The notes below the pieces were generated by a model. It was not told the origin of the DNA and searched no databases. It worked only from the letters and a program-made list of their open reading frames with translations. A program made the translations under genes and the position numbers. A DNA stretch of 64,000 bases from an uncultured Candidatus Saccharibacteria bacterium (lineage in GTDB: Bacteria > Patescibacteriota > Minisyncoccia > 2-02-FULL-40-12 > GWA2-44-9), in contig CAZBFM010000001.1 of assembly GCA_964491455.1 (NCBI GenBank), positions 564,903 through 628,902 of the forward strand. Direction: 5' to 3'. Positions 873 to 47,653 of this stretch are shown here, piece by piece. Numbering within the stretch: position 1 is the first letter of the stretch; every line of letters starts with the position of its first letter.

Positions 873-2132
873 TTACTTTTTGAAGTTCAAACCGGTCGAT
901 TGCGTAAGTCGAGCAATCTCAACGCGTGCCAATCGATTCTGGAATCGAAGCGTGCGCGTGTAGGCAGCGTAGGCAGCAGTCGCCAGCGCAGCAAGAAGAA
1001 GGGATACCATGACTGAATCAGCAGGACCCGTTTTCACTGAAGAAACACTCGTGATGACTGCATTCTGACCAAGCACTATCGGCAATGATGCGGATATTGT
1101 GCTCATAGAATCTGCGCGAGCCTGTGCAATCGAGTAGACAGTCGTCATGGTTGAGGCTGGTACATACGCGCCATCGACACGGACGGAGAATTTGACTACC
1201 GACGCACTGTAGGGAGACACGGTGCCGATATAAATGCCAGTTGAGGTGACGCCATCAGCAACAACGGTGCCGTTGAGTGTGGTGGATCCGGAGATATAGT
1301 TCAATCCTGCTGGAAGCTGATCCGTAACATACGCATTATACAAGGAGCTGCCATTGGTCGAGCGCACACGAATAATCAAATCAAGCGTGTCCCCACCACG
1401 AGCACTCACAATCGCATACTCACCACTCTGACCACGTGTCACATTGCGACCCGTTTCTGCGATCGTCATGTGCGCATACGGCGCTGGAGTAGGAGTCGGA
1501 GTAACGTAGGAATTACCATAGACTGTCACGCCACACGTCACGGTCTGATACCCGCTGGTAACAGTAACATTACGATTGACCGCGTAGTTTGCGTAGTTAT
1601 AGTAGCGAGTGACAAAGTTTGAGTAGTTGCCATACGTTGGCGACCCCTCAGATGTGTACCATGAGTAGTTGCCATTTCCGCCCCATGCATTGAAGGAGAC
1701 GAGATCACCAGAGTTTGCATATGACGTCACTGCAGAGCAGTAGAGCGTACCATCATATGGAGTTGGCGTAGGAGTTGGTGTTCCGCAGGTAGAGTTCACG
1801 TACACCGTTGCGGTTGCAACCGCGTAGCCACCAGTCGTATTCGTGCCGGTGATAGTATAGGTTGCTGTCTGTGTAGGATAGACATACCGCTCGCCATAGG
1901 GGAGCACCGAGCCGATACCCTGATCAATCCAGACGCTTGTTGCATCCGTCGAAGACCATGCGATTCGCACAGGCTGGCCGGAGCAAACACTCGCCGGGGA
2001 AGCGGTGATTGCTACTGATGCCAAAAGGACATCCGCCGCAAAAACCGGAGCCGAGACAACAAGTCCCATGACCGCTACAAGGATTGATACGATGACGCGC
2101 TGCGTCAATGATGGGGTGGTGTTCATATGCAT
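873..2132 (-). CDS. cell-surface protein with Thr/Pro linkers, DUF11-like repeat domain and a C-terminal sorting-signal-like tail
   Basis: Signal peptide, TPTPTPTP linkers, and a repeat domain around LDLIIRVRSTNGSSLYNAYVTDQLPAGLNY. The C-terminus has VKTGP, a hydrophobic stretch, then a long Arg/Lys-rich tail. Co-directional with the sortase at 148..825. Confidence 0.65.
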   Translation of the reverse strand: MHMNTTPSLTQRVIVSILVAVMGLVVSAPVFAADVLLASVAITASPASVCSGQPVRIAWSSTDATSVWIDQGIGSVLPYGERYVYPTQTATYTITGTNTTGGYAVATATVYVNSTCGTPTPTPTPYDGTLYCSAVTSYANSGDLVSFNAWGGNGNYSWYTSEGSPTYGNYSNFVTRYYNYANYAVNRNVTVTSGYQTVTCGVTVYGNSYVTPTPTPAPYAHMTIAETGRNVTRGQSGEYAIVSARGGDTLDLIIRVRSTNGSSLYNAYVTDQLPAGLNYISGSTTLNGTVVADGVTSTGIYIGTVSPYSASVVKFSVRVDGAYVPASTMTTVYSIAQARADSMSTISASLPIVLGQNAVITSVSSVKTGPADSVMVSLLLAALATAAYAAYTRTLRFQNRLARVEIARLTQSTGLNFKK

Positions 2133-2316: not shown

Positions 2317-2808
2317 TTGAAAAAACTAGTTTTCGCCGCCGTGCTCCTGGCGATGATTTCGCTAGGAGCGTGCACCGGTCCCTGCAACGGCTGCGCACCT
2401 GGCTCGGGCCCGTCATCGTATGCCCCGACACCCACGCCGCGGCCGAGCGCGACACCAGCGCCAACGGCTACGCCAGCGCCGACGGCAACGCCTGCGCCGA
2501 CGCCCGTGCCGACGGCTACGCCAGTGCCGACCGCGACGCCTGCTCCGAACTGCACCTACGCAGTACAGGAGAGCCCTCAAAACTTCACCTATCAAGGTGG
2601 GAACGGTGGCTTCTCGGTCAGCGCCAGTCGCTCTGACTGCAGCTGGGGCGCCACTTCGAACGTAGGATGGATTGCCATCACCTCCAATTCGCAGGGGAGA
2701 GGTAATGGGTCGGTGACCTATTCGGTGGGTGGCAACGGCGCAGGCGCACGCACGGGCACGATCAGCGTTGCTGGAAAAGTCGTAGTAGTTGTCCAGCAGG
2801 GCAGGTAA
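2317..2808 (+). CDS. lipoprotein with Pro/Thr-rich linker and C-terminal Ig/BACON-like beta domain
   Basis: Signal peptide ending in the lipobox LGAC, a (TPAPTA)n linker, and a Cys/Gly-rich beta-strand domain. TTG start with a good SD. Confidence 0.65.
2425..2548 (+). repeat. in-frame tandem nucleotide repeat encoding a [10 protein letters not shown] linker
   Basis: Imperfect ~18-nt tandem units (acgccagcgccgacggct...) inside the lipoprotein CDS. The spurious Arg-rich ORFs on other frames come from this repeat. Confidence 0.7.
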
Positions 2809-2888: not shown

Positions 2889-3998
2889 CTACTTCGCCCA
2901 GAAGTTGAGCGTAACGCGTCCGTAGTACCGACCCGGATATTCGAATCCGATCACGGTTACCGCATAGCTGGCGCGGCTTCCGAGTGGTCCGGTAAATCCA
3001 ACACCAGCGCCACCCATCGGAAACGCAGATGCACTCATCAGCTCCCGAGCGGAAACTTTCTTAGTCACCGAAACGATAGTGCTTCGCGTTGTTCGCTGAT
3101 GGGCATCACCAACAATACGACCGACACCTGCACTGATGGATATCATCGGCTGGATGCCATGGCCACGGCCAACCGGAATCCTGAAATCACCCTCGATTCT
3201 CGCTCCCCACACGTTGACATTGGAGAGCGCCGTAGTCTCGATATCGAGGCCGCATGATGGGCACTGATATCGGGAAAACGAACCTTCGTAGATTGACTTT
3301 CGAGCAACGGTGAATCGCCACACCGTTGACGTTGGCGTGCCACGAGCAACGCCGATGTCGAAGTCTCGTCCCTGCATGCAAATCGTGCGACCAGTCATCG
3401 ACTCGAGGGCGCCACCCAGCGGCCGAGAGTCGAACTCGCCAATCATCGCACTCCCGGTGATACCCCACACAGGTATTGAGCTTTCTGGTGTGGGGACACG
3501 AGTGGGCGCGAGTGATTCGACCACTCTTCGCTCAGGCTTAGGTGATGACTGCAATTCAATGGTCCTTTGTGGAACCTCTTGATAGCTCGGGACTATCTGC
3601 ACGGGTTGCAACGGGGGAGCGATAGTGACGCCGTAGACGGGATTGCCACAATCATCACGAGCATAGAGCTGAAGCGACCCATCAGGCAGTCGATACGCCC
3701 GGAAGTAGGTGCCTTCACGTTGCGCAACGTACTTCTCGCCCCCGACCACCAGCATGCGGATGCACTGTGCGGACTCCAGCTGGACGCGGATCCTGTCGAC
3801 TCCGTTGACGGGATTTTTCGCGTTCAGGCCGAAGTACCGCGGCTCGTAATAGCGAAACTCGCCCGACTGCAAGGCCCCGTTGCAGGCAGCCAACGTAGAA
3901 AAGGTGTTCGGAGCGACCGGCGTGGTTGCATACGCATGATCCGACCATCCGATGACCAGACAGAACACACAAGCGAGAACGGCAAGCACTTTTTTCAT
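2889..3998 (-). CDS. secreted hypothetical protein
   Basis: 369 aa with a clear signal peptide (MKKVLAVLACVFCLVIGWSDHAYA) and no recognisable domain. Confidence 0.55.
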   Translation of the reverse strand: MKKVLAVLACVFCLVIGWSDHAYATTPVAPNTFSTLAACNGALQSGEFRYYEPRYFGLNAKNPVNGVDRIRVQLESAQCIRMLVVGGEKYVAQREGTYFRAYRLPDGSLQLYARDDCGNPVYGVTIAPPLQPVQIVPSYQEVPQRTIELQSSPKPERRVVESLAPTRVPTPESSIPVWGITGSAMIGEFDSRPLGGALESMTGRTICMQGRDFDIGVARGTPTSTVWRFTVARKSIYEGSFSRYQCPSCGLDIETTALSNVNVWGARIEGDFRIPVGRGHGIQPMISISAGVGRIVGDAHQRTTRSTIVSVTKKVSARELMSASAFPMGGAGVGFTGPLGSRASYAVTVIGFEYPGRYYGRVTLNFWAK

Positions 3999-5460: not shown

Positions 5461-5547
5461 CGGAAGCGGGAGGATTCGAACCTCCGATGGGGTTACCCCC
5501 ATGCCACATTTCGAGTGTGGTGCCTTCAACCACTCAGCCACGCTTCC
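5461..5547 (-). tRNA. tRNA-Ser (anticodon CGA)
   Basis: Type-II tRNA. Acceptor GGAAGCG/CGCTTCC, anticodon loop CTCGAAA, discriminator G73. Confidence 0.8.
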
Positions 5548-5607
5548 ACTGAACGCGAATTGTACCACTTTTAGTGGCTTTTATCAATTATCTTGCAGTC
5601 GTACCAA

Positions 5608-6357
5608 TTAGTAGTAGATCTCCTTACGAGGGGGATACTTGGCGATGATATCGAATGCCTCTTGCGCGGTGTCCACGAGGTGGTAGAGCTCCATGTCTTC
5701 CTTGTCGATACCCTGATACTTATCAAACACAGTGTCTTTGATATACGCCAAGAGAGGGGCCCAGAAATCTTTACCCACCAAAATAAGCGGCACCGACTCG
5801 CGATCAATCTTGTGTGTCTGCACCAGCGTAACCAGCTCGAAAAATTCGTCGAGCGTGCCAAATCCTCCCGGGAAAAACACATACGCTTGCGCGGTGTAAA
5901 ACAGCATCACCTTACGCACAAAGAAATAGTAGAACGGTTGTGTCTTGGTCAGGTACGGATTACTGCGCTGTTCGAAGGGGAGGCGAATGGTAATACCGAT
6001 GCTTTCACCACCAGCCTCATAGGCGCCACGACTGCCGCCCTCCATGATACCGGGGCCACCACCGGTGACGACGCCGATTTTCTTTTTGGCCAGCATTCCA
6101 CCGAGCTCGCGTGCAACCTGGTACCATTTGTTCTCTGCGGTGAATCGCGCTGAACCGAGAAACGAGACTGTGTTTTTGTAGTCGGTGATAAATTGCCATC
6201 CATCGACGAATTCCGCCATGATGCGAAATACGCGCCAGTGAAAACTGGACCGAAAATCCAGTGGCATATCCTTCATCTCTTGCTCCAACGGCAACTTCGA
6301 TGCCGGAAGATTCATCGTGCCCTTTTTGTCCTCGTCCATGTCAATAGTATACCACAA
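5608..6357 (-). CDS. LOG family protein (cytokinin riboside 5'-monophosphate phosphoribohydrolase-like, TIGR00730)
   Basis: Motifs GVVTGGGPGIMEGG and PGGFGTLDEFFE. Confidence 0.8.
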   Translation of the reverse strand: MWYTIDMDEDKKGTMNLPASKLPLEQEMKDMPLDFRSSFHWRVFRIMAEFVDGWQFITDYKNTVSFLGSARFTAENKWYQVARELGGMLAKKKIGVVTGGGPGIMEGGSRGAYEAGGESIGITIRLPFEQRSNPYLTKTQPFYYFFVRKVMLFYTAQAYVFFPGGFGTLDEFFELVTLVQTHKIDRESVPLILVGKDFWAPLLAYIKDTVFDKYQGIDKEDMELYHLVDTAQEAFDIIAKYPPRKEIYY

Positions 6358-6429
6358 GCGCCCCGCGAGATGCGGAGCGCTTGTGTGTTGGTGGGCTGCT
6401 CGATGAGATTCGGTGAGAATTCGAATAAC

Positions 6430-6819
6430 TCAACGATTGATTCGCTCCATCTCTCCCCATGGATGCGGCGCCTCCTTAGCTTCTTTCAGTTCTCTCCAGT
6501 GCAACCTTCCATATTCAAAATAACGTTCTATTTTTTCTCTACCGCCTCCGCGATTTTCGGAATGAGCCTTAAGCTCACTAATTTCTTCAAAAATTTCCGG
6601 ATGAACTTCAGCGATCCACTTTGCAATTTCCCATCCCTCCATTTTTCCTTCTCCCAAGTCATTATCAAAATCAAGCGACTCTATTTTTTCTCCACGAGTG
6701 AGAGCCTCCTCAAGCGCCCCCTTAAACTCTTCAAAATCTCGAACGCCAACATATCCCTCAGGGACCTGTCTATTTGGCATTCCTGGTTCGTTCATTTGAT
6801 CGTCCAAAAAGATTTTCAT
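6430..6819 (-). CDS. hypothetical protein (start trimmed to avoid tRNA-Ala)
   Basis: The ORF to 6912 overlaps the tRNA-Ala gene, so the internal start MKIFLDDQMNEPG at 6819 was chosen. Acidic protein with no recognised domain. Confidence 0.45.
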   Translation of the reverse strand: MKIFLDDQMNEPGMPNRQVPEGYVGVRDFEEFKGALEEALTRGEKIESLDFDNDLGEGKMEGWEIAKWIAEVHPEIFEEISELKAHSENRGGGREKIERYFEYGRLHWRELKEAKEAPHPWGEMERINR

Positions 6820-7101: not shown

Positions 7102-8538
7102 ATGTTAGAAATTCATCCGAAAGTCGCCGAGATTCTCTCTACCCTCGAAGATGCAGGGCACCCTTCATATATAGTAGGGGGCTGTGTTCGCGATCGCCTC
7201 ATGGGCAACCATCCAACGGATTGGGACATCACGACCAGTGCGCGACCGGAGCAAATTCAGGCGCTCTTTCCGGATCACTTCTACGATAATGCGTTTGGCA
7301 CCGTTACCATCAAAACACGTGACGATGATCCCATCGTGCGCACTGTACAGGTAACGCCATTTCGCACTGAAAGCGACTACACCGATAAGCGACACCCCGA
7401 CGTCATCGCATTTGCCGACACCGTCGAGGAGGATTTATCACGTCGTGATTTTACCGTGAATGCCATTGCTGTTCGCCAGAATGGCGACATCGTCGATCCC
7501 TACAACGGCCAAGCCGACATCAAGGCGCGCACACTCCGAGCGGTAGGGAAGGCAACTGATCGATTTGAGGAAGATGCCCTGCGCATGATGCGAGCGGTAC
7601 GATTTGCGACTTCGCTTAATTTTGTGATTGAAGATGAAACACTCAAAGCGATCACGACGCACGCCGGCTCGCTGAAAGATATTTCGATGGAGCGCGTGCG
7701 CGACGAGCTCACCAAAATCATCGACACATCACGAGCATTCGAGGGAATCCAACTTCTCGAAGATGTTGGTCTTCTGAAGTATATCATCCCCGAATTGCGT
7801 GAGGGCCTTGGCGTAGAGCAAAATCTGCACCACATCTATTCCGTCTGGGAGCACAATCTGCGCACCATGAAATACGCGTCGGAAAAAAAGTATTCGTTCG
7901 CCGTTCGCATGGCGTGCCTCTTGCACGATGTCGGCAAGCCGCGCACCAAACGGGGACAGGGGCGACACTGCACCTTCTACGCCCACGACTCCGTTGGTGG
8001 CAGTATGACCAAGCTCATTATGGAGCGCCTCAAGTATCCAAAAGAGTTAAGCGAAAAAGTCGCCCTTCTGGTGCGCTATCATATGTTCTACTACAGCGTC
8101 GGTGAAGTGACGGAGTCATCCGTACGACGACTCATCGCAAATGTCGGGCTCGAGAATATCGATGATCTATTACGTCTCCGCGAAGGGGATCGCATCGGAT
8201 CAGGCACGCCTAAGGCAGTGCCCTACAAGCTCCGCCACCTCAAATACATGATCGACAAGGTGAGTCACGATGCCATCTCGGTGAAGATGCTCAATGTCGA
8301 CGGGAAGGAAATTATGGAAGCACTCGCTATGCCACCCGGTCCAAAACTTGGCCTCATTCTCAATTCGCTGCTCGCCGAAGTGCTCGATGACCCAACGCTC
8401 AACGAGAAAGAAGCCCTCCTCAAGCGCGCAAAGAAGCTCGATGCAAAGTCTCCCGAGGAACTCACAAGTGCGCTGGAACGCATCAAGAAAGCACTCGATG
8501 ACGAAGAGCAGGAGCGTATGAAGAAGTACTACGTGTAA
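7102..8538 (+). CDS. cca: CCA-adding tRNA nucleotidyltransferase with HD domain
   Basis: Motifs GGCVRDRLMG...DWD of the polymerase-beta nucleotidyltransferase head, plus an HD domain (LLHDVGK). The ORF extends upstream across the tRNA, so the start MLEIHPK at 7102 was chosen. Confidence 0.85.
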   Translation: MLEIHPKVAEILSTLEDAGHPSYIVGGCVRDRLMGNHPTDWDITTSARPEQIQALFPDHFYDNAFGTVTIKTRDDDPIVRTVQVTPFRTESDYTDKRHPDVIAFADTVEEDLSRRDFTVNAIAVRQNGDIVDPYNGQADIKARTLRAVGKATDRFEEDALRMMRAVRFATSLNFVIEDETLKAITTHAGSLKDISMERVRDELTKIIDTSRAFEGIQLLEDVGLLKYIIPELREGLGVEQNLHHIYSVWEHNLRTMKYASEKKYSFAVRMACLLHDVGKPRTKRGQGRHCTFYAHDSVGGSMTKLIMERLKYPKELSEKVALLVRYHMFYYSVGEVTESSVRRLIANVGLENIDDLLRLREGDRIGSGTPKAVPYKLRHLKYMIDKVSHDAISVKMLNVDGKEIMEALAMPPGPKLGLILNSLLAEVLDDPTLNEKEALLKRAKKLDAKSPEELTSALERIKKALDDEEQERMKKYYV

Positions 8539-8541
8539 ATC

Positions 8542-8567
8542 AAAAAGATCCCGCCAGGGATCTTTTT
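8542..8567. terminator. bidirectional intrinsic terminator
   Basis: AAAAAGATCCC-gcca-GGGATCTTTTT, a perfect 11-bp stem with A and T tracts. Confidence 0.7.
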
Positions 8568-8581
8568 GATTGTTGCCATAT

Positions 8582-8618
8582 GTCGGGCCGCCGAGAATCA
8601 AACTCAACGGGGCTTCAT
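8582..8618 (-). other. partial degenerate copy of the tRNA-Pro 3' segment (acceptor 3' strand plus T-arm)
   Basis: atgtcgggccgccgagaatc is identical to the tRNA-Pro 3' end plus its trailing nucleotides, then diverges (caaactcaacgggg versus gaactcggtc). Confidence 0.6.
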
Positions 8619-8641
8619 TTCTTTCATTTTTCGCATCAATG

Positions 8642-8712
8642 TCGGGCCGCCGAGAATCGAACTCGGTCTTCATGAACCCGAATCATGCGTACGACCGGTA
8701 TACTACGGCCCG
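8642..8712 (-). tRNA. tRNA-Pro (anticodon CGG)
   Basis: C1:G72 acceptor (CGGGCCG/CGGCCCG), anticodon loop TTCGGGT, T-loop TTCGATT, A73. No CCA. Confidence 0.75.
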
Positions 8713-8739
8713 CCATTACGACGAAAAATGTAAAAGCCC

Positions 8740-8767
8740 GTCGTGCGTGAAATCGTTCACGCACGAC
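8740..8767 (-). terminator. 12-bp perfect hairpin followed on the minus strand by a T-rich tract
   Basis: GTCGTGCGTGAA-atcg-TTCACGCACGAC, with GGGCTTTTACATTTTT after it on the minus strand. Sits between the upstream tRNA-Pro 5' pseudo-fragment and the intact tRNA-Pro. Confidence 0.5.
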
Positions 8768-8811
8768 CTTCATGAACCCGAATCATGCGTACGACCGGTA
8801 TACTACGGCGC
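8768..8811 (-). other. 44-nt perfect direct repeat of the tRNA-Pro 5' portion (nt ~4-46), a pseudo-tRNA fragment
   Basis: cttcatgaacccgaatcatgcgtacgaccggtatactacggc is identical to 8668-8711. It lacks a T-arm and a 3' acceptor strand. Confidence 0.7.
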
Positions 8812-8853
8812 GCTTTCGCACTTGAAAGCCGCACTATCATACCATGGAAATCA

Positions 8854-9375
8854 CTAGTCTTCCAGCTCTGTCCGAGAGCTGTCTTCAAGGTTGAGATGCT
8901 CATTGAGATCGTTGAGTTCGCTCTCGAAGTCCTCCTCCGCAGCACCATCCGACTGATCCTCTATGTCTTCTGTCGTATACTCGTCTTCATCAATAGAGAG
9001 CTGCTGATCACGCACGCCATCTTCATCATCAATCATGCGCTGCATGTGCTCCATCTCAATATCCAAACGCTGTTCGTCGTCTCGAATGAGCGATGTCTGG
9101 ATACGATCATTTACTGCTACGCGAAAATCGTACAGCGCATCCCCGGGATCCGCGAATTGTGCTGACACTCCCGTTGCGCTACCAGCGATGATAAGACCAC
9201 CAACAAAGGCCGCAATACTATGGCGTCCAATCCATCCAACTGCCTGTGAAAAAAATCCGTTCATGGGACGATTCGAAAGCGCGAATGCGTGGAGTCGAGA
9301 CCGCACGGCAGAACGCTCCTTCGGGGTAAGGGTTAAACGTTTGTACTCTGCAATAAAATTATCTGGAATTGTCAT
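8854..9375 (-). CDS. putative anti-sigma factor (single TM, acidic extracytoplasmic tail)
   Basis: 4-nt overlap with the upstream ECF sigma gene. Cytoplasmic N-terminus, one TM (HSIAAFVGGLIIAGSATGV), then an Asp/Glu-rich C-terminus. Confidence 0.5.
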   Translation of the reverse strand: MTIPDNFIAEYKRLTLTPKERSAVRSRLHAFALSNRPMNGFFSQAVGWIGRHSIAAFVGGLIIAGSATGVSAQFADPGDALYDFRVAVNDRIQTSLIRDDEQRLDIEMEHMQRMIDDEDGVRDQQLSIDEDEYTTEDIEDQSDGAAEEDFESELNDLNEHLNLEDSSRTELED

Positions 9376-9869
9376 ACGTGAAGTAATGCTCTCAACTGCT
9401 CTAGTCCGCGAGTGATCCGGGTTGAAATCACCGACTCCTTCAATCCCGTGATCATCGCAATCTCACGAGGCATGAGCTCATCGAGAAGCCGCATCGTCAC
9501 AACATCACGATAATTTGGCTCGAGCTGTTGCAGAACGCGGATAACATGCTGGCTCGTGGCTCCAAGAAGGGGATCAATAGCTTGCGGATCTGAGATATCA
9601 AACCCTTCCTCTCGAATACTATCTAGCGACTGCGCAACTGCCTTGCGGCTATGATCAATGAGCGCGTTGCGAGCGGTCGAATAGAGGAATGGCCGCATGA
9701 GCCGAATACTTCGACCACGCTGTAGGTGCTTCCATGCCCGGACGAACGTGTCTTGCATGAGATCGAGCGCAAGATCACGTTGTCCGGTTTGGGCATAACA
9801 AAATCGGAAGATGGCGTCGGCGTGCTCATCATAGGCCGCAAGAAAGCGCTCTTCCAATTGCAACGACAT
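9372..9869 (-). CDS. RNA polymerase sigma-70 factor, ECF subfamily
   Basis: Region 2 and region 4 features (DLMQDTFVRAWKHL and VVTMRLLDELMPREIAMITGLKESVISTRITRGLEQLR). Confidence 0.85.
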   Translation of the reverse strand: MSLQLEERFLAAYDEHADAIFRFCYAQTGQRDLALDLMQDTFVRAWKHLQRGRSIRLMRPFLYSTARNALIDHSRKAVAQSLDSIREEGFDISDPQAIDPLLGATSQHVIRVLQQLEPNYRDVVTMRLLDELMPREIAMITGLKESVISTRITRGLEQLRALLHV

Positions 9870-15625: not shown

Positions 15626-16540
15626 ATGAGTGGAAGAATAAAACTCCTACTCGCTCTTTTAGCCGCGGGTGCCGGCCTGACTTTTTGGTACTCAACACGC
15701 TCTCTCTTCGCTGACACGCCAGCAAGCGCAACGATCGCAAAGACCTTCACAGCCGACGCGACGTGTAGCGATCAAGATGGTGATGGCCTTTGCGATTATG
15801 ATGAAACCTATTGGTCTACGGATTTTAACAATCCCGACTCTGATGGTGACGGATTTAAAGATGGGGAAGAGGTGCTCTCGGGACATGATCCCGCAAAGGC
15901 TGGCCCCGATGATGCTATTCGCAAACAAGAAAACCTCACGCAAAAAGCAGGAAAGATGATATTGGGTGCAATGCTGACCGGTGACATCGCCGACAATAGT
16001 GCGACCTATGAAGCATCCGTCCAAAAATTAATCGATCTACTATTCCAGCAATATGACGCGAACACAGCGATCGACCTGGATTCTATTGTTAAAGCTCCCG
16101 CGGGAAGCGCGAGCACAATCCAATACAGTGCCGCGATGTCACGCATCCTCACGCAAATGATGCCTGAAATTCAGGCAAATGAGCTCGCCGTTCTAGAAAC
16201 GATTCGTGATATTCAAATCGAAGACTTGCCCCGCCTCGATACAAGCAGCCCGGAGAAGTACGCGGCATTCATTCATGCAATTGATAATGAAATCAGCGCA
16301 TACAACGAACGCGTCAACGCGATCAAGTCCGTTCGAGTGCCCACATCGCTTGTCTCGTTTCACACATCGCTCATTCAGTATCTCCGCGGTGCCCAACAGC
16401 AATACCGAATGATACGCACCATCACGAAAGACCCCGTGCAGGGGCTCTTGTCGCTCCAAGTGCTTCATACGCTAGTCTCAGAAACATCGGCGCAAATAAC
16501 GGAATCGTTCACGAGACAGGTAACAAGTGCACTCCCATGA
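15626..16540 (+). CDS. membrane-anchored protein with thrombospondin-type-3-like Ca-binding repeats
   Basis: N-terminal TM, then DQDGDGLCDYDE and DSDGDGFKDGEE repeats. First gene of a co-directional cluster. Confidence 0.5.
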   Translation: MSGRIKLLLALLAAGAGLTFWYSTRSLFADTPASATIAKTFTADATCSDQDGDGLCDYDETYWSTDFNNPDSDGDGFKDGEEVLSGHDPAKAGPDDAIRKQENLTQKAGKMILGAMLTGDIADNSATYEASVQKLIDLLFQQYDANTAIDLDSIVKAPAGSASTIQYSAAMSRILTQMMPEIQANELAVLETIRDIQIEDLPRLDTSSPEKYAAFIHAIDNEISAYNERVNAIKSVRVPTSLVSFHTSLIQYLRGAQQQYRMIRTITKDPVQGLLSLQVLHTLVSETSAQITESFTRQVTSALP

Positions 16541-18153
16541 GAACTTCTCGACTTACCTCCACGACACTTCTCATCCTCTACGTGTGCGCGTTTACGTATC
16601 TTGGCGCGCTGCTGGGACTAACACTCACTCGTGCAGCTCAACCAATCGAATTTAAAAATGGCCAACCACCAAGTAGCTTGAGCGTCGGACAAATTATTGC
16701 AGAAGCAGGACTCAATGGGGGCAAGTATCAGGCATGCAAAGGGGATATCTTTACGCTCTTTCAAGGGCAACTCGACAAAAAACTTACGAGAGTCGCCACT
16801 GAATTAGTCTCTGACGCATTACGCGCATACAAAGATCAAATGGCTTCGTATCTTGTATGCCGCGCTGAAAGCTTCCTTAATAATTTGTGCGTTTTTGGTA
16901 GCTGCGCAGGAGGAGGCATTGATTGCAAGAAGCCGATTGCAAGTGATGTGACATCATATCTCAAATTAAATTGGAAGGACTCTCTCAAGTCATCATTTTT
17001 AGCGAGCTGCACATCTCTTTACGCACTCAAATTCACTGGCGACACCGTGGACCAAAACATCCTTGAAAACGGCCCCGGTGGCGCTCCCGCCTATGCGACG
17101 AACTGGATTGAGACCGCCAACACAGCCTCAGATAAAGAGGGGAAGCGGCGATTCTGGACAATTCTGTCTAACACGAAGATTTGCCCGTATTTCAAGGAAG
17201 AAGTGTATCGCTATTTTGAAGTTCCTAGAGAATACATCGAGACTCCTCCACTCATGAACGCTTCTGACATGCAGGTGTCTGCTGATACTCCATTTACTCT
17301 TGTAGGCGGATGCACACTTCCTACGCAAGAGTTCGATACAGGTTCCTACGAATTTCTCTCCAAACTCATCGAGCCTCAGAATAACTTTAACGGCTTTGTG
17401 AGATTAGCCGAGGAAGAACAAAAGAAGCAACGAGAAGCAGCCGTATCCGCTGCCAAAGAACAACTGATTGCCGGTGGGGGATTTCTACCCACGTACGCGT
17501 CGGGAAGTTGCAACGAGGATCCGAACGGTAAGTGCATTAGCTACGGTGGCATCGCATTGCCACCGGGTGCAGTTCGGGACTCTCGTATGGCAGATATTAC
17601 GGCAAATTATAATAAGATGCTCCAATCAAATGGAGAGAATTATGTTGGCATGACCGACCTCGGTGCGCGCTTGCAAGTCCGTATCTTGGGGCTCATGAAC
17701 AAACCGCTTCCACTCAAGCTTGAGCTTGGCTCCGAATTTGATGAAGCAAACTTTACTCCCATTGCCACTCCCGTTACTGGCACCAACCCCAATGATCCAA
17801 CATGCACCGGTGGCAACGCGCAATGCACCTGCGTCAAAGACAATCCAGACGCCCAGAGGATCGCCTCGAGCATTCTTGCTCCGGCGATTGAGCGCGCCCG
17901 GTCCAAGCACCCCGAATTTTTTGTGACTGGGTCAAGCCAAATTGCGCCAGGCGTCGATTACCGCCTCGTACTTGCGGCCATCTGCAGCGACTTCAGCGCT
18001 GTTTGCGCTCCTCATCCAAACCAAGACGATGAAATTGTTATTATCAGCGCCGATGGCCTGACCATTTCCTACGATGTCATCACTGGAGATGGCTACGCAC
18101 GCACCGATGGGGGAGCCCCCGTAGCGCAATGTGAGCCTGGTATTCAAAACTAG
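16537..18153 (+). CDS. Cys-rich secreted/membrane-anchored hypothetical protein
   Basis: 538 aa with an N-terminal TM or signal, many Cys and no known domain. 4-nt overlap with the upstream gene. Confidence 0.5.
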   Translation: MRTSRLTSTTLLILYVCAFTYLGALLGLTLTRAAQPIEFKNGQPPSSLSVGQIIAEAGLNGGKYQACKGDIFTLFQGQLDKKLTRVATELVSDALRAYKDQMASYLVCRAESFLNNLCVFGSCAGGGIDCKKPIASDVTSYLKLNWKDSLKSSFLASCTSLYALKFTGDTVDQNILENGPGGAPAYATNWIETANTASDKEGKRRFWTILSNTKICPYFKEEVYRYFEVPREYIETPPLMNASDMQVSADTPFTLVGGCTLPTQEFDTGSYEFLSKLIEPQNNFNGFVRLAEEEQKKQREAAVSAAKEQLIAGGGFLPTYASGSCNEDPNGKCISYGGIALPPGAVRDSRMADITANYNKMLQSNGENYVGMTDLGARLQVRILGLMNKPLPLKLELGSEFDEANFTPIATPVTGTNPNDPTCTGGNAQCTCVKDNPDAQRIASSILAPAIERARSKHPEFFVTGSSQIAPGVDYRLVLAAICSDFSAVCAPHPNQDDEIVIISADGLTISYDVITGDGYARTDGGAPVAQCEPGIQN

Positions 18154-18155
18154 AT

Positions 18156-20846
18156 ATGAATTTTCGCAAGGCATCTTCTATTATTCTGCTTCTTCTGATC
18201 ATCATCTGGCCTCAACCAGCGCACGCATTTGGCGAGGGGGCGATGGCGACCGTTTTGAGCGTTTTTAATGCCGTCATTGAAATTATTCAAGCGGCAATTG
18301 TGAAGCTTCTTATTACGTCGGGTCAACTCCTTCAAGACGTCATCCATCTTGAGATGTCGTACGGGGGAGCAGCTGTCTATATGGTCTGGAAAATCTTTCG
18401 CGATATTTGCAATTCGCTGTTTATCATCTTTTTCATCATCATCGCCTTTAGTACCATCTTCAACTCTATCGCCCCGAAAGGCTTAAAGCCCTATTTCTGG
18501 AAGGAAGCGCTCACCAATGTCATCTTGGCTGCGATTTTGATTAATTTTAGTCTCCCCATTGGGCAGGCGATGATATGGGCTGGCAACGCATCTGGTAGCT
18601 ATATGCTCAAGGCAATAGGAGTTGGCGATTTTGGCAAAAAAATTGCCGAAAATCTCAATTTTGCCGCTGTCATTGCTGGAACAAGCGCACAGCAATATCC
18701 CACCGTTTCTGTAGACTTTCCGGAATCGAGCAATCTTTCCGCTGCCAACCTCACTGGCGTTCAGTCTTGGGTAGCTGCATCGCAATACGACACAGCACTT
18801 GGCCAGGCAGCACGCGCTGCAATACCCGTTATGAAAAAGTGTCTGGAAGCGAATCGTCCGCCAGTGGAATGCTACAACGAGGGAGTCGCTATGCATAAAA
18901 ATGAATTGATAGTTGCCGCCGACAAAGACGCCAAGGCAAAAGCGGCGGCGGAAAAAGCGCAAGCTGATTACGACGCTTGTATGAATCCATCATCGCCGAA
19001 TCGAGATAGCGTCGTCGTAAAAAATTGCGGTGAAAAACCACCTTCCGCTCCTAGCTCCGACTACCTAATGGACGCCGGGCAGTATACTCGTTTCTTTGGA
19101 TCTATGCTTCTCACTGGAAAGTGGGCAATCACCGCGCCCTCGGGCCCCACAGACTTAGACGGGCAGGTGAGTTTATTACTAAGTAATATCCTTCATCTCA
19201 TAATGATGCTTGCCATCGTATTGTCGTTTTCATCGATCATCATCTTCCAGGTTGCGCGTATTCCTGCGGGATGGTTTCTCCTCTCATCGTCGGCAATGGC
19301 ATTTTTTTCGATAGCTATGCCAGGCTCAACTCTCTTTGGTAAGTGGCGCGATAATATGATTGGATGGGCACTCTTTACGCCGCTCTATCTTTTTGTGATT
19401 TATATTGGATTGTTTGTGCTCGAACAACGAGGCACGCTTTTGGCAAGCATGAGCAACGCTCAGATGCCATTTTTCATGGGTAAACTGGGAATTGTACTCT
19501 TCTACTTCATCACGGCATTTATTTTCATGCGTGGTGCGAAGTGGGCACAAGAAACGGCATTCGGGTATAGCAAGATGGCGGGCACAGCATTTGGCGCAAT
19601 CGCGTCGAGGATGGGTGTCGATGAGAAGTCCAACTTTGGCCTCACAACAGCGGCGGGTGGTCTAGCGAAGTATTCTGGCGCACAAGGAGCCTACGAGTCC
19701 GTGAAAGCCACGGGCGAGGCACGCATCGCAAAGATGAAGCAGGGGATCTCTGACAGCTCGTTTTTGGCAATGCCTTCTTATTTGCGATCTAAAACCTATG
19801 CTGAAAAACTTGCTGAGGGCAAAGCCGCGATGGGAGTGCGCGGCGCGGATGCCGAAGTGGATAAATTCCTTCAAGAAAGGATCAAGGGTCACAAAGAAAG
19901 AATTGAATACGAGGCAGATAAAATCACTGATAAAACTAAGAAAACCGCCTATCTTCAATCTCAACTCAACAGCGGAAATCGCGATGTAGCGCTGGCCGCT
20001 GGCGAGATACTCCTCAAGCAAGGGAAGCTCACCCCAGCTCAAATCTCTATGCTTTCTGGTAAGTATGGAGACATTTCTCAGGTCGCTAAGAAAGAATTCC
20101 AGAAGCGAGTCACTGAGCAATCCAAGAAAGATGCGCGCAAATTGGTCCCAGCAAATTTTGCAGAACTACTAGAGCGCGTAAAAGTAGCTGGAAAATCAGA
20201 AGACAAACGGGCATTCCTTGAAGCTGGTTTATCAGGAGAGATAGGCCAGATGAAGCTATCCGGTGCAGACTTATTAGCGCTCACGGGTGAAATGGATAGC
20301 GTCGAAGACAAACGGGCATTCCTTGAAGCTGCCACTAAAACCGGCCGCAACAAAGTAACTGCCATTGAAACTATGGCCAACCTTGGGCTCATAACGGATC
20401 GAAATGGTGTTAAAACTTCTGCGGCTGAAGCGATTGAAGACCGTGCGAAATCTTTATCAGATGTAGATCTACTGGATGCAGAAGAGTACTTTCATGCCGG
20501 AGGGAAGCCCATGTCTCCAGTATTGAAGGAGAAAATGAAGCAATCAATTAAGAATCCGGAAAAGTTTGGTCAAATTATAAGAAACGTCTCGGGTCCAGAT
20601 CAGCAACTACGAATACTCGATGAATTTTCAGATATAAAACACGCTAGTTCAATTGCGCGACGGGACGTTAAAGAACTTGAAAAGAAAGAGCGGAAATACG
20701 CGAAAGGAATCAAGCAATTACAAAAGAAGGCTGATAAATTGGTCGGTGCTAAGAAGAAACGAATAGAAGACTGGATTGAGGATTTGGAGGTAAAACGAAG
20801 CGAAATGAAGGAAGAGATGCAGAAAAAGAAAAAAGAAATAACTTAA
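18156..20846 (+). CDS. polytopic membrane protein, VirB6/TrbL-like (putative), with Lys-rich coiled-coil C-terminus
   Basis: At least 7 predicted TM helices in the first ~480 aa, then a long charged or coiled-coil tail ending KKKKEIT. Lies 1.5 kb upstream of virB4. Confidence 0.45.
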   Translation: MNFRKASSIILLLLIIIWPQPAHAFGEGAMATVLSVFNAVIEIIQAAIVKLLITSGQLLQDVIHLEMSYGGAAVYMVWKIFRDICNSLFIIFFIIIAFSTIFNSIAPKGLKPYFWKEALTNVILAAILINFSLPIGQAMIWAGNASGSYMLKAIGVGDFGKKIAENLNFAAVIAGTSAQQYPTVSVDFPESSNLSAANLTGVQSWVAASQYDTALGQAARAAIPVMKKCLEANRPPVECYNEGVAMHKNELIVAADKDAKAKAAAEKAQADYDACMNPSSPNRDSVVVKNCGEKPPSAPSSDYLMDAGQYTRFFGSMLLTGKWAITAPSGPTDLDGQVSLLLSNILHLIMMLAIVLSFSSIIIFQVARIPAGWFLLSSSAMAFFSIAMPGSTLFGKWRDNMIGWALFTPLYLFVIYIGLFVLEQRGTLLASMSNAQMPFFMGKLGIVLFYFITAFIFMRGAKWAQETAFGYSKMAGTAFGAIASRMGVDEKSNFGLTTAAGGLAKYSGAQGAYESVKATGEARIAKMKQGISDSSFLAMPSYLRSKTYAEKLAEGKAAMGVRGADAEVDKFLQERIKGHKERIEYEADKITDKTKKTAYLQSQLNSGNRDVALAAGEILLKQGKLTPAQISMLSGKYGDISQVAKKEFQKRVTEQSKKDARKLVPANFAELLERVKVAGKSEDKRAFLEAGLSGEIGQMKLSGADLLALTGEMDSVEDKRAFLEAATKTGRNKVTAIETMANLGLITDRNGVKTSAAEAIEDRAKSLSDVDLLDAEEYFHAGGKPMSPVLKEKMKQSIKNPEKFGQIIRNVSGPDQQLRILDEFSDIKHASSIARRDVKELEKKERKYAKGIKQLQKKADKLVGAKKKRIEDWIEDLEVKRSEMKEEMQKKKKEIT

Positions 20847-20849
20847 TTC

Positions 20850-21365
20850 ATGAATCCAGAGATAGTAGCCGAAAAAATACCAGCGCCGTTCATCTGTCTT
20901 TTGATGGGGAGGGACGCGGATGAACAATATCTGCTTTCTGCCGCTTTCCTAGCGCTCGATGATTCTGAGCAAGAGATTCTAGTCGGGGAAAGTACTGTCA
21001 AAGAAATTGCAACCTGGATTTCGAGTGGTTTATTACCTCAAACCCATGCGGTCGCGATAGCAAAAATCATAGGAATGCTAGCATTAGAAGACGACATCTC
21101 CCCGGGCGCACTTCCTCAAATTCTCGATAGCATCGGCATTCAATCTGCGGCAAAGTTAATTCTCTCTGAAAAGATAACTCAACTCGTTCAGCCATTCCTT
21201 GAAGACACGAACGAATTTGAACCCGAAACACCTCCTTCGCAGTCCCTTAATTCGACACCAACCATCGCGCCGCTGTCGCCGCTTAGAACATCGAAGCCTG
21301 TGCCCGTGCCACCTCCGCCAAACCGTACTACAATAGACCTACGAGATAAGAAATTAACACCGTGA
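20850..21365 (+). CDS. hypothetical protein (Pro-rich C-terminus)
   Basis: 171 aa, tightly packed between the TrbL-like and VirB3-like genes. Confidence 0.45.
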   Translation: MNPEIVAEKIPAPFICLLMGRDADEQYLLSAAFLALDDSEQEILVGESTVKEIATWISSGLLPQTHAVAIAKIIGMLALEDDISPGALPQILDSIGIQSAAKLILSEKITQLVQPFLEDTNEFEPETPPSQSLNSTPTIAPLSPLRTSKPVPVPPPPNRTTIDLRDKKLTP

Positions 21366-21679
21366 GATTTCAAGTCCCACAATTTATTGATACCGAGACC
21401 AAGCTCATTGGGCCTTTCACGTTAATGCAGTTTTTGTTTGTAGCTGGCGGCGTGAGCCTACTTTCGGTTGTGTGGATACTCTTCAACGGCATTTTGTTTG
21501 CCATTCTCGCGCTCCTCATCGCTGCATTTTTTGGCTCACTCGCATTCTTGCGTATCGATGGGCAGCCATTTCTCAATTATTTAGCCTACATGTTGGCGTA
21601 TGCGCTTGGCTCTAAGAGGGCAGTGTATCAAATCAAGCAGGAACCGAATCAATTTACTCCACCCACGCATGGCAACTGA
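21362..21679 (+). CDS. small two-TM membrane protein, VirB3-like (putative)
   Basis: 105 aa with two TM helices. Encoded immediately upstream of virB4 with an 11-nt overlap, as virB3 is in T4SS operons. Confidence 0.4.
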   Translation: MRFQVPQFIDTETKLIGPFTLMQFLFVAGGVSLLSVVWILFNGILFAILALLIAAFFGSLAFLRIDGQPFLNYLAYMLAYALGSKRAVYQIKQEPNQFTPPTHGN

Positions 21680-22307
21680 AACCTCTACAACCGATCTCAT
21701 TCAAATTCAGGAATTGCGTGATGGGGTGCTTATCCTTAAAGACGGGTCGTTACGCGCCGTGGTCAAGATATCGGCAATCAATTTTGAGCTTCGCTCAAGC
21801 GATGAACAGCAAGCAATCCTGCAGCAGTTTGGGGCGTTTATGAATTCCATTGATTTTCCAATACAAATGGTTGCTCATTCTCGTCGATTCGATATTACTA
21901 CCTACCTCGCTAATCTTGAATCGGCTACGCAAGGTCTCACCAACGACCTCCTGAAGGTGCAGTCGGGGGAGTATGCAAGATTTGTTCGCGAATTGTCAGA
22001 GCTCGCCAATATCATGCAAAAGAATTTCTACGTCGTACTCCCTATGGAGGTCACAGCAACATCCGAAAGTACGGGATTCTTTGGAGGCATCAAGGAGATG
22101 TTTAAGAAAACACAAAGAGCACAATCGCTCTCGTCAGACCAGCTCGCCCTGTTTCGCTCTCAGCTCCAGCAACGCGCTGACCTGATATTAGGAAGCGTCT
22201 CTGGTATGGGCCTGAAGGGCTCTATGCTTGAGCAGGAAGAGCTCGTAGCTCTGTTCAATGATGTCTACAACCCCGTTGTACCCGCCGCACCTCAACCTAA
22301 CGCGTAA
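21669..22307 (+). CDS. virB4: VirB4/TrbE N-terminal domain fragment (ends at in-frame TAA 22305-22307)
   Basis: IQIQELRDGVLILKDGSLRAVVKISAINFEL..QQAILQQFGAFMNSIDFPIQM matches the VirB4/CagE N-terminal domain. It is in the same frame as the following ATPase ORF. Confidence 0.6.
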   Translation: MATETSTTDLIQIQELRDGVLILKDGSLRAVVKISAINFELRSSDEQQAILQQFGAFMNSIDFPIQMVAHSRRFDITTYLANLESATQGLTNDLLKVQSGEYARFVRELSELANIMQKNFYVVLPMEVTATSESTGFFGGIKEMFKKTQRAQSLSSDQLALFRSQLQQRADLILGSVSGMGLKGSMLEQEELVALFNDVYNPVVPAAPQPNA

Positions 22308-22310
22308 CCT

Positions 22311-24056
22311 ATGGAACTACCACCTGTCGGAGTATCTACAACACTTGCGCCCTCGGCAATAAAAATATCGCCCAACTTTTTGCAGGTCGGCGACAAATAC
22401 GCACGAACCATCTTTATAGCGACCTATCCGAGATTCTTAAATGCCAACTGGCTCTCGCCCATAGTGAACCTTGATAAGGTGCTCGATGTTTCGATTTTCG
22501 TAACACCGCAATCGACCGCCACTATGCTCAAGCAGTTGCGCGACCAGCTCACTCGCGTGCAATCTCAACTCATGGAAGAAGAGTCGGCGGGAAAAGTGAG
22601 AAACCCCATGCTTGAAACGGCAGTCGGTGACTTGGAATCGCTGCGTGATAGCCTTCAACAGGGGACCGAGCGATTCTTCCAGGTTGGACTCTACGTCACC
22701 ATGTATGAAAACAGCCTCCACGACCTCGACGAAACAGAGGGGAAGATAAAAAGCATACTCGATGGCCTCCTCGTGATTCCTAAGCAGACATCGTTTCGGA
22801 TGCTGGAAGGTTTTCTCACTACCTCGCCACTGGCCGATGATCGCATCCGTGCATTGACCCCGCTCAATACTCAACCCATCTCGTCGATGTTCCCGTTTGT
22901 GTCCAGCGACCTTACTTCCAACACGGGTATTCTATACGGTATCAACACCACCAATAACAGCATGGTGATATTTGATAGGTTCTCGCTTGAAAACGCAAAC
23001 TCCGTCATGTTTGCAAAATCAGGAGCCGGAAAAAGCTACACGGTGAAGCTTGAGCTTCTTCGCTATCTCTATCTGGGAACGCAGGTTCTCGTCATTGACC
23101 CTGAAAATGAGTATGGCTTTTTAGCGGATACTGTCGGAGGCACCAACGTTATAATCTCCATCAATTCCGATCAGCATATTAATCCGTTTGATTTACCAAC
23201 ACCGAAAGACGAAGAGTCTTGGAGTGACGTATTTAATTCGCATATCCTAAACTTAGCCGGACTCATGAAGCTCATCATGGGAGGGGGACTCACGCCCGAA
23301 GAAGAATCCATGCTCGATGAGGCGCTCATTCAAACATATGCGATTAAAGATATTGTGCCCGATTCAGATTTCTCCAAGCTTCCACCGCCTATCCTTTCTG
23401 ATCTTCACAACATTCTCTCCGGCATCACCGGCGCGGAGCGGATGGCAACACGTTTGGAAAAGTTTACCACGGGTACCTTTGCGGGCTTCTTGAATCATCC
23501 GACCAATGTACCACTCGATAATAACCTCGTTGTATTTGGTCTTCGTGACTTAGAGGACGAGCTCCGTCCAATCGCGATGTATTCGGTGCTTAATTATATC
23601 TGGGCGCAGGTGCGTCGTATACGAAAGAAGCGAATTCTCGTGGTAGATGAGGCGTGGGTACTCATGAAATACCAGACCGGTGCAGAATTCTTATTCAATA
23701 TCGCAAAGCGTGGACGTAAGTATTACTGCGGACTCTCGACGATCAGCCAAGACATTCCCGACTTCATGTCCACGCCGCAGGGGAAGGCAATCGTCACCAA
23801 CTCATCGATGCAAATGCTCATGAAACAATCACCCGCTTCCATCGATATCATTCAGCAAACGTTCAACCTTACCGATTCTGAGAAATTCTACCTCCTGGAA
23901 GCACGCGTAGGCTTTGGATTGTTCTTCCTCGGCGCTAACCACGTGGGCCTGCGAGTAATGGCTTCGTACGCAGAAGATCAAATCATCACATCCGATCCTC
24001 GTCAGCTTCTCGAGATAGAGAAGGCAAAAGAGGAGTGGGCTAAAGTAGGCAATTAA
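22311..24056 (+). CDS. virB4: VirB4/TrbE/CagE-family type IV secretion ATPase (C-terminal ATPase part)
   Basis: Walker A FAKSGAGKSYTVK, Walker B ILVVDEAW, and VGDKYARTIFIATYP at the start of the middle domain. Confidence 0.85.
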   Translation: MELPPVGVSTTLAPSAIKISPNFLQVGDKYARTIFIATYPRFLNANWLSPIVNLDKVLDVSIFVTPQSTATMLKQLRDQLTRVQSQLMEEESAGKVRNPMLETAVGDLESLRDSLQQGTERFFQVGLYVTMYENSLHDLDETEGKIKSILDGLLVIPKQTSFRMLEGFLTTSPLADDRIRALTPLNTQPISSMFPFVSSDLTSNTGILYGINTTNNSMVIFDRFSLENANSVMFAKSGAGKSYTVKLELLRYLYLGTQVLVIDPENEYGFLADTVGGTNVIISINSDQHINPFDLPTPKDEESWSDVFNSHILNLAGLMKLIMGGGLTPEEESMLDEALIQTYAIKDIVPDSDFSKLPPPILSDLHNILSGITGAERMATRLEKFTTGTFAGFLNHPTNVPLDNNLVVFGLRDLEDELRPIAMYSVLNYIWAQVRRIRKKRILVVDEAWVLMKYQTGAEFLFNIAKRGRKYYCGLSTISQDIPDFMSTPQGKAIVTNSSMQMLMKQSPASIDIIQQTFNLTDSEKFYLLEARVGFGLFFLGANHVGLRVMASYAEDQIITSDPRQLLEIEKAKEEWAKVGN

Positions 24057-24061
24057 CACCA

Positions 24062-43615: not shown

Positions 43616-43691
43616 CCGCCCTTAGCTCAGTTGGTAGAGCTGCTCCCTCTTAAGGAGAAGGTCCCTGGTTCGAATCCAGGAGGGCGGACCA
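43616..43691 (+). tRNA. tRNA-Lys (anticodon CTT), CCA encoded
   Basis: Acceptor CCGCCCT/AGGGCGG, anticodon loop CTCTTAA, and a genomic 3' ACCA. Confidence 0.8.
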
Positions 43692-47457: not shown

Positions 47458-47579
47458 ACGATCGAGTAGCTTCACGAGACCTCCTTGGTAAATGACTAAA
47501 AATATAATAACAGCAAATATTATATGAGTCAAATCACGCACACAAGTCCGACACCGGGGAGGTATCGGACTTGTTATGG

Positions 47580-47653
47580 TGGGCCCGCCTGGACTCGAAC
47601 CAGGGACATCCAAGGTATAAGCTTGGCGCTCTAACCAGCTGAGCTACGGGCCC
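47580..47653 (-). tRNA. tRNA-Ile (anticodon TAT)
   Basis: Anticodon stem CCAAG/CTTGG with loop CTTATAC, A73, and standard D and T arms. Confidence 0.65.

Follow-up and report, generated by a model that had tools for sequence, protein, structure and literature searches.

Why should a tRNA gene lie between two incomplete copies of itself? The question is posed by a 64,000-nucleotide (nt) stretch of DNA, here called the window, from an uncultured “Candidatus Saccharibacteria” bacterium (GTDB lineage Bacteria; Patescibacteriota; Minisyncoccia; 2-02-FULL-40-12; GWA2-44-9; GenBank assembly GCA_964491455.1, contig CAZBFM010000001.1, positions 564,903 to 628,902), in which an intact tRNA-Pro(CGG) gene is preceded by a copy of its own first 45 nt and followed by a copy of its 3' end. 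The original prediction for this locus saw in the duplicated ends a footprint of integrase-mediated insertion or excision (attL/attR), with a decayed tandem duplicate or the scar of a departed mobile element as fallback readings. Our comparisons with related loci favor a different answer: recombination between two diverged forms of the locus has probably duplicated part of the tRNA-Pro(CGG) gene.

An intact tRNA-Pro gene between two halves of another

The unit lies on the minus strand in the 315-nt gap between a gene of 173 amino acids (aa), whose stop codon is at 8854-8856, and the convergent cca gene, which ends at 8538. ARAGORN and Rfam alike call a single tRNA-Pro(CGG) there (8641/8642-8712; 52.9 bits in Rfam against a threshold of 29), as originally predicted, and the gene itself occupies 8642-8712, 71 nt without an encoded CCA. 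Its sequence is identical to that of the single-copy gene in the related loci L003, L005, L061, and L152 and to the tRNA of L059, and it is likely the only functional part of the unit. Rfam matched nothing except tRNAs, either in the window at gathering thresholds or in 8480-8900 at E values of up to 10, and none of the other tRNAs in the window (16 in all) has partial copies.

The 5' fragment, X' (8768-8812, minus strand), is a copy of tRNA-Pro nt 1-45 with one mismatch, at 8810, and comprises the 5' strand of the acceptor stem, the D-arm, the anticodon arm including CGG, and the first 3 nt of the variable loop. With the base before it included, the repeat matches at 45 of 46 nt (8768-8813 versus 8668-8713). 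The perfect copy reported at the outset thus exists, but its perfect run is 42 nt (8768-8809; tRNA nt 4-45) rather than 44; at tRNA nt 3 a G has become C, at the cost of an acceptor pair, and beyond it nt 2, 1, and -1 are again identical. The 3' fragment, Y' (8580-8607, minus strand), holds the T-stem, T-loop, acceptor 3' strand, discriminator A, and CAT. As was correctly recognized, it is a degenerate copy of the tRNA 3' end: 25 of 26 nt match between 8580-8605 and 8639-8664, three trailer bases (CAT) included, the sole difference being C56>T in the T-loop, and the T-stem holds two G-U pairs. Weak similarity continues beyond this repeat as far as the motif ATGAAG at 8613-8618. In the 64-kb window (blastn-short), the repeats have E values of 2.4e-19 (X') and 3.2e-6 (Y'). 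ATGAAG both ends X' and precedes Y', from which it follows that the two fragments jointly span the whole tRNA. They are separated from the intact gene by noncoding spacers of 55 nt on the 5' side and 36 nt on the 3' side; the spacing of the direct repeats is 100 and 59 nt.

In place of the T-arm and acceptor 3' strand that the upstream copy lacks, and equal to them in length, stands a perfect hairpin, H (8740-8767, minus strand), with a 12-bp stem (arms at 8740-8751 and 8756-8767, 100% complementary), a 4-nt loop, and a predicted folding energy of -20.9 kcal/mol. The hairpin is as predicted, but its proposed role as the fragment's own terminator is not borne out: the sequence after the stem reads GGGCTTTTACATTTTT, in which four bases (GGGC) intervene before TTTT, so H is not a canonical terminator, which would have a G+C-rich stem with a U tract within 0 to 2 nt. 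A terminator scan of 8300-9100 listed no terminator-like site. H was also considered as a repeated palindromic element and rejected on its single occurrence in the window.

Group I introns are common in the tRNA genes of Patescibacteria, where they sit at position 35/36 and have a ribozyme fold (PMC13011429). The present case resembles them in phylum and in the interruption of a tRNA gene by additional sequence, but at this locus the interrupting sequence enters at about nt 45/46, encloses a whole tRNA, and is matched by no ribozyme in Rfam. An intron-containing or split tRNA made of X' and Y' likewise finds no support: only the inner tRNA is matched by Rfam, the change at nt 3 of X' breaks a pair, Y' carries C56>T, and in two more distant loci of the same layout (L016 and L023, described below) the 3' half is truncated.

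Strain comparison and the integrase question

The placement of the fragments is clearest against L061, an outgroup with a single tRNA-Pro gene in the same orientation as in the window (cca at 84% aa identity). Its 5' flank aligns upstream of X' with a score of 18.5 (shuffled sequences, 3.0 ± 1.6) but upstream of the intact tRNA with a score of only 1.5; its 3' flank aligns downstream of Y' with a score of 20.0 (shuffled sequences, 2.8 ± 1.6), against 3.5 downstream of the intact tRNA. X' and Y' therefore occupy the positions of the ends of a single ancestral gene, and between them lie about 150 nt that include a complete tRNA along with its leader and trailer, two sequences complementary to one another. 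In short, direct-orientation copies stand beside their parent, with the outer pieces at the ancestral promoter and terminator positions.

L059, which comes from another sample (cca 95.5% identical at the nucleotide level) and which we group with the window as clade A, has the identical 315-nt layout with 25 substitutions. Could a mixture of strains in a metagenome have been assembled into a chimeric, partly duplicated locus? The repeats are short, the source is probably a metagenome-assembled genome, and one independent assembly, the Logan contig L001, ends within X', as expected where a repeat is longer than the contig's k-mer. L059, however, is an independent assembly that spans the layout with 25 single-nucleotide polymorphisms of its own, so the arrangement is not an assembly artefact, and two further assemblies from a different lineage have the same architecture; we give an artefact almost no credence.

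Between the window and L059, substitutions number 3 in 46 positions of X', 0 in 28 of H, 4 in 27 of the leader between H and the gene, 0 in 71 of the tRNA, 0 in 23 of the inner trailer, and 3 in 37 of Y'. With 3/46 against 0/71, X' drifts like a spacer and not like the tRNA; the numbers are small, but they are suggestive of fragments that evolve without the constraint of a functional gene. The mismatches are also strain specific, since X' of L059 departs from the live tRNA at nt 16 and nt 45, unlike that of the window, and Y' of L059 retains the T-loop C. For X', such a pattern fits a copy that was still perfect in the common ancestor of the two.

In the sister clade (clade B; L152 and L003, with cca 93 to 94% identical at the nucleotide level), there is one gene without X', H, or Y'. 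The leader of this gene matches the inner leader of the window and its trailer matches the outer one, and in the alignment the loop and 3' arm of H (CGATTTC...CGAC) resemble the promoter region of L152 and L003. Identity between the clades falls from 92 to 96% to 70 to 77% across the last ~220 nt of the 173-aa gene, and this drop stops at X'; the promoter and distal leader differ strongly, and the cca 3' end and terminator are 94 to 97% identical. We conclude from the drop that recombination with diverged DNA left a tract whose end falls at X', within the tRNA locus. The duplication is thus present or absent among close relatives, and its junction coincides with the boundary of a recombination tract. 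To this extent the fallback readings of the original prediction came closer than its first one, in that the region is a strain-variable partial duplication whose 5' boundary coincides with the end of a recombination tract; a departed mobile element receives no support.

Duplicated tRNA 3' ends are a classical mark of integration, and by this token the direct repeats would be attL/attR-type remnants of one or two lost integrative elements that targeted tRNA-Pro. Many tRNAs of the relatives do carry exact copies of their last 18 to 20 nt about 150 nt downstream. Integrating elements are also described as leaving tRNA gene fragments beside intact tRNA genes in prokaryotes (PMC9897764), and a 5' fragment can be among them, as in the archaeon Caldiarchaeum, where 1.8 kb lie between a 5' fragment of tRNA-Thr and the intact gene downstream of it and where the insert bears a recombinase (PMC3293823). 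The copies at the present locus share with such remnants their direct orientation, their nonfunctional, partial character, and their position by a live gene. They differ in that neither an element nor a recombinase lies between the copies, here or in relatives, that the spacers are only 55 and 36 nt, and that complementary halves of one gene, at the positions of the ancestral flanks, enclose the live copy. A Pfam scan of all open reading frames (ORFs) of at least 130 aa in the window returned no integrase, resolvase, recombinase, or transposase family, and in none of ~35 related loci is there an element between the repeats or at the site: L003, L152, L061, and L005 are empty sites, and L059 has the same short layout. 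Precise excision, moreover, would remove the repeats and not leave them 36 and 55 nt from the gene; a displaced 3' end is not all that was duplicated, the 45-nt 5' fragment being present as well; and a covariance model of the tRNA-linked element found in relatives (see below) finds nothing in the window. An integrase scar is thus very improbable. The original prediction had itself named, as the first of two observations that would favor simple duplication and decay, the same arrangement in related genomes with no element ever present, and this is what the related loci show. An integron-like motif at the junction, GTTGAGT, which resembles GTTRRRY, was also considered and dropped (no integrase; poor fit at the left junction).

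A second lineage and the order of events

Two loci far from clade A, L016 and L023, whose cca is ~60% identical to that of the window, have a homologous layout in the opposite orientation relative to cca: behind promoter and leader come a copy of nt 1-45, a hairpin of 28 nt, GGGCTTTT, another leader, and finally the tRNA. Their tRNA differs from that of the window at five sites, yet their own 5' copy is 100% identical to their own tRNA; the 3' half of the broken copy is truncated. The hairpins of the two lineages are homologous, and the window, L059, L016, and L023 retain 12 of 12 pairs through three double compensatory changes and two of the G-U type, with pairing preserved only on the tRNA-sense strand. 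Similarity between the lineages is significant both in the spacer that holds the hairpin (p<0.0005) and in the trailer (window versus L023, p 0.0005). In L149, a relative of L016 and L023, a single gene has an L016-type leader and the trailer found in those two loci. The second leader of L023 is a diverged copy of its native leader (19 of 29 positions identical; p 0.006 outside the repeat), and the distance from the 5' copy to the tRNA equals the length of leader plus tRNA. By this evidence the L016/L023 layout reads as a tandem duplication, in which a palindrome would have replaced the 3' third of the upstream copy.

L016 is a mosaic, with a distal leader 95% identical to that of L149 and a segment from the hairpin to the start of uvrD that is 99 to 100% identical to L023, against a background of 80 to 88%, from which we conclude that the module moves between lineages by homologous recombination. 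Within this segment, a block of ~400 nt (L016:2720-3140), which takes in the hairpin, tRNA-Pro, tRNA-Ala, and the beginning of uvrD, is 98 to 100% identical between the two loci; it is a tract of recent recombination with tRNA genes as its anchor. In the 5' fragment of L016, an inserted perfect palindrome of 19 nt (CCTGCCTGCCGCAGGCAGG; L016:2671-2689) separates the D-arm from the anticodon arm. It is absent in L023 and, among the fetched loci, occurs only in L016 and its source contig. Together with H, it suggests that short perfect palindromes arise at the tRNA-Pro locus.

Does the recurrence of the layout point to a function? The 5' fragment and hairpin might be kept as a cis-acting or stand-alone RNA (a tRNA-Pro mimic, decoy, or attenuator), with the helix between leader and trailer serving as a processing stem. 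The proximal leader (GGGCTTTTACATTTTTCGTCGTAATGG; 8713-8739, minus strand), which starts with GGGCTTTT directly after H and whose 3' part is homologous to the L003/L152 leader, is complementary to the inner trailer (CATTGATGCGAAAAATGAAAGAAATGAAGCCCCG; 8608-8641, minus strand), 34 nt long and with an end homologous to the L016/L023 trailer. In the window, this pairing is significant in an inverted-repeat test (p 0.0045) and gives a duplex of -24.1 kcal/mol (z -4.5); z scores range from -3.3 to -8.9 in the window, L059, L016, L023, and L149, compared with -1.7 to +1.3 in 16 other relatives. Processing stems of leader and trailer (RNase III type) surround rRNA and some tRNA precursors, and the predicted pairing resembles them in prolonging the acceptor stem by ~17 to 30 bp and in keeping complementarity while its sequences vary by lineage; unlike in those systems, most relatives have no such pairing around tRNA-Pro. 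A functional RNA would further account for a layout shared by two lineages with ~60% identical cca genes, for fragments that match their own tRNA at the five differing sites, for the conserved pairing of the hairpin on the tRNA-sense strand, and for a strongly folded transcript as a whole (predicted z -6.5).

Set against these points is the distribution of the layout, found at only 4 of 27 tRNA-Pro(CGG) loci and at 0 of 119 other tRNAs, and lacking in the sister strains and species L152, L003, and L149. X' takes substitutions at the intergenic rate and in L016 accommodates the inserted 19-nt palindrome; GGGCTTTT after the hairpin is changed to TGGCATTT in L059; there is no Rfam match; and the covariation comes from two independent lineages only. 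A search for the junction of fragment and hairpin (TTCGGGTTCRTRWAGGTYGTG) found no further real case: the six matches in a metagenome collection are the source contigs of L016 and L023 plus four chance hits with no tRNA, and the one match in a viral collection was likewise due to chance. On balance we think a functional RNA unlikely. 

A related suggestion is that the 5' two-thirds, the conserved hairpin, and the stem-embedded tRNA-Pro form an RNA device that is kept for its function, or a small cassette that moves from lineage to lineage within Patescibacteria by recombining into resident tRNA-Pro(CGG) genes. If so, the fragment and hairpin might be a stable tRNA-mimic RNA or a gate on tRNA expression, and the outer halves could stay paired as a two-piece tRNA-like molecule after release by RNases P and Z. 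We hold this to be quite improbable.

Alternatively, one duplication could have taken place in the common ancestor shared with L016 and L023, after which the copies were homogenized with the live gene and lost in most descendants. The homology of the hairpin, the following GGGCTTTT, and the trailer motif across lineages (p<0.0005 and 0.0005) is what such descent would leave, as is the mirroring of lineage-specific tRNA differences in X'; deletion between the repeats would be easy, and single-gene relatives stand beside both lineages. At least eight independent losses would be required across the sampled relatives, however, and both the strain tree and the almost perfect match of X' agree with a recent event in which conversion played no part, while L016 attests to movement between lineages by recombination instead. 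One old module is, we judge, rather unlikely.

We return to a partial duplication by recombination between diverged versions of the locus, for which we infer the direction and number of events, as well as the route of transcription, as follows. Two such versions would have recombined with one join falling inside the tRNA gene, out of register, either as a homology-anchored illegitimate join or by unequal exchange, and the left junction would then have been remodeled into the perfect 12-bp palindrome. The 5' half (nt 1-45) still lies 23 nt behind the putative promoter and the 3' half (T-arm to discriminator) 11 nt before the terminator. The inner gene would be transcribed from the promoter upstream of X', with read-through of fragment and hairpin, which we presume because the stretch between H and the gene is too short for a promoter; the tRNA would be released by RNase P and 3' processing and receive its CCA from the enzyme encoded next door by cca. 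X' and Y' are probably functionless. Direct repeats make the arrangement unstable and prone to deletion, and single-gene relatives adjoin both lineages.

The signals that such transcription would use are at the outer ends of the unit. A promoter-like extended -10 box (TGGTATGAT; 8836-8844, minus strand), read from the sequence, is 20 nt past the stop codon of the 173-aa gene and 23 nt before X', and would drive the whole unit. A homologous box with equal spacing precedes the single gene of L061 (TGATATGAT) and of L003 and L152 (TGCTATAGT), another is present in L059 (TGGTATGCT), and TGGTAnnnT is found in most relatives; a generic promoter scan did not list the box of the window, because there is no good -35. 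The distal leader between box and X' (8813-8835, minus strand; 23 nt) matches the leader of the single gene of L061. At the other end, 8 nt beyond Y' (CAT included), cca and the tRNA unit have in common a bidirectional terminator-type hairpin (8538-8571; 15 bp, 100% complementary). Its stem is kept in L003, L061, L059, and L152 through changes in both arms (GATCCC/GGGATC versus GACCCC/GGGGTC).

This account has parallels. In the general dynamics of bacterial genomes, part of a gene may be duplicated in tandem, after which the copies decay and are deleted between the repeats. The present locus agrees with this course in its direct repeats, in an upstream copy that keeps the promoter, in its drifting fragments, and in sisters resolved to one gene; it departs from it in that the window's spacer is not recognizable as a copy of the upstream leader and that the missing third is replaced by a perfect palindrome of equal length, conserved in a distant lineage. 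Homology-facilitated illegitimate recombination on the uptake of diverged DNA is known in naturally transformable bacteria; it would similarly give a diverged tract that starts in the neighboring gene (the would-be anchor) and ends at an out-of-register join, leaving a partial duplication. The present case differs in having a second junction, on the 3' side, that needs an explanation of its own. Pseudogene fragments of tRNAs from local recombination are of a known kind, of which this layout is a variant; we found no description of the layout itself in the literature.

Several observations weigh against this account. The order of events is one, for parsimony on the strain tree favors a gain in clade A, but the clade B leader matches the inner and not the L061-like outer leader, so that clade B could be a deletion derivative. 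The spacer between X' and the tRNA in the window shows no significant similarity to the sequence upstream of X' (p 0.9), and a clean tandem duplication is therefore not demonstrated there. Nothing in L152, L003, or L061 corresponds to the inner trailer; the hairpin and trailer motif have their homologs in a lineage with only ~60% identical cca; retention of all 12 hairpin pairs through three double changes exceeds what a pure scar would conserve; and no donor sequence was found. Two simpler schemes were dropped for the window, namely, tandem duplication of leader plus tRNA (by the same spacer comparison, p 0.9) and tandem duplication of the trailer (inner versus outer trailer, p 0.11).

For annotation, the locus is a clear caution against taking every tRNA fragment next to a tRNA gene for the sign of a genomic island, and X' and Y' are better flagged as pieces of a pseudogene than as att sites. 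It also shows that the very small, streamlined genomes of Patescibacteria still carry strain-variable rearrangements from recombination with diverged DNA, for which tRNA genes serve as endpoints. Should selection prove to act on the hairpin and on the 5' fragment with its match to its own lineage, the two would constitute an unusual tRNA-mimic leader.

A tRNA-linked element in relatives and the genomic surroundings

A by-product of the comparison, separate from the tRNA-Pro finding, is a structured element that follows many different tRNA genes (Ala, Ser, Pro, and Arg) in L007 to L010, L014, L015, L019, and L064. Its copies lie at L007:950-1079(-); L008:4972-5101(+); L009:2124-2260(-), 2583-2714(+), and 5472-5603(-); L010:1226-1355(+) and 3553-3682(-); L014:837-966(-), 1597-1726(-), and 7647-7776(-); L015:304-435(-); L064:120-254(+); and L019:6226-6333 and 6340-6447(+). 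Each consists, in order, of a hairpin with an apical part (TGCCNTNTGGCA-like) that most copies conserve; a conserved core of ~110 nt, which starts with an inverted copy of the T-loop and T-stem of the host tRNA; and an exact direct copy of the last 17 to 20 nt of that tRNA. The distance from the tRNA 3' end to the direct copy is ~150 nt in most copies of the element; it is 121 nt in L015 and 97 and 211 nt in L019. Compensatory changes occur in 25 of 35 predicted pairs, and the excess of G-U pairs (23) over A-C mismatches (6) favors the tRNA-sense strand.

A covariance model of this element (R1; cmsearch) recovers 14 clear copies in relatives, at 38.7 to 132 bits, and has no match in the window, L059, L016, or L023; a link between Y' and the element was rejected because R1 does not match the window. 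The element has no Rfam match, its pattern matches in viral contigs were all due to chance, and no description of it was found in the literature. It could be an RNA that mimics the tRNA 3' end or a miniature insertion that targets tRNAs; as an undescribed element, it merits a study of its own and may be the more interesting lead.

The window itself is core chromosome, with dnaA, dnaN, yidC, gyrA, ftsH, nusA, tig, tyrS, and leuS, and within Patescibacteria the analysis characterized its organism as Paceibacterota/Yanofskybacteria-like. Around the tRNA-Pro unit lie the genes of the CCA-adding enzyme, of tRNA-Ala and UvrD, and of an ECF sigma factor accompanied by two small unknown proteins. Among relatives, the tRNA-Pro(CGG) unit beside cca flips orientation repeatedly while the flanking genes keep theirs: it is minus relative to cca in the window, L059, L003, L152, L061, L008, L009, and L014 and plus in L004 to L007, L010 to L013, L016, L023, L060, and L062 to L064. 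The spacing from tRNA-Pro to tRNA-Ala(CGC) varies from 0 to 13 nt (L011, L012, and L021) up to 2.5 kb, and in the relatives of the window a sigma/anti-sigma cassette fills the gap. The ECF sigma gene (9372-9869) is only 75 to 86% identical between the window and L059 over ~300 nt, compared with 97 to 99% for the flanking genes, and marks a further recombination tract between these strains. On the other side of the unit, L003 has an extra ORF of ~278 aa (L003:1877-2712), whose translation looks low in complexity and coiled coil, between cca and the shared terminator; it lies outside the repeats and is absent in the window, L059, and L152.

Elsewhere in the window, large membrane proteins that lack annotation cluster with a VirB4/TraG-type ATPase (15626-25063, the ATPase at 22311-24056) and, with a T4SS-pilin/SLT protein at 57579-58742, make up a type IV secretion-like apparatus in a core chromosomal region. 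A tRNA-Ile with the anticodon TAT is present (47577-47653), and together with tRNA-Lys(CTT) (43616-43691) it accounts for the only 2 of the 16 tRNAs that encode CCA.

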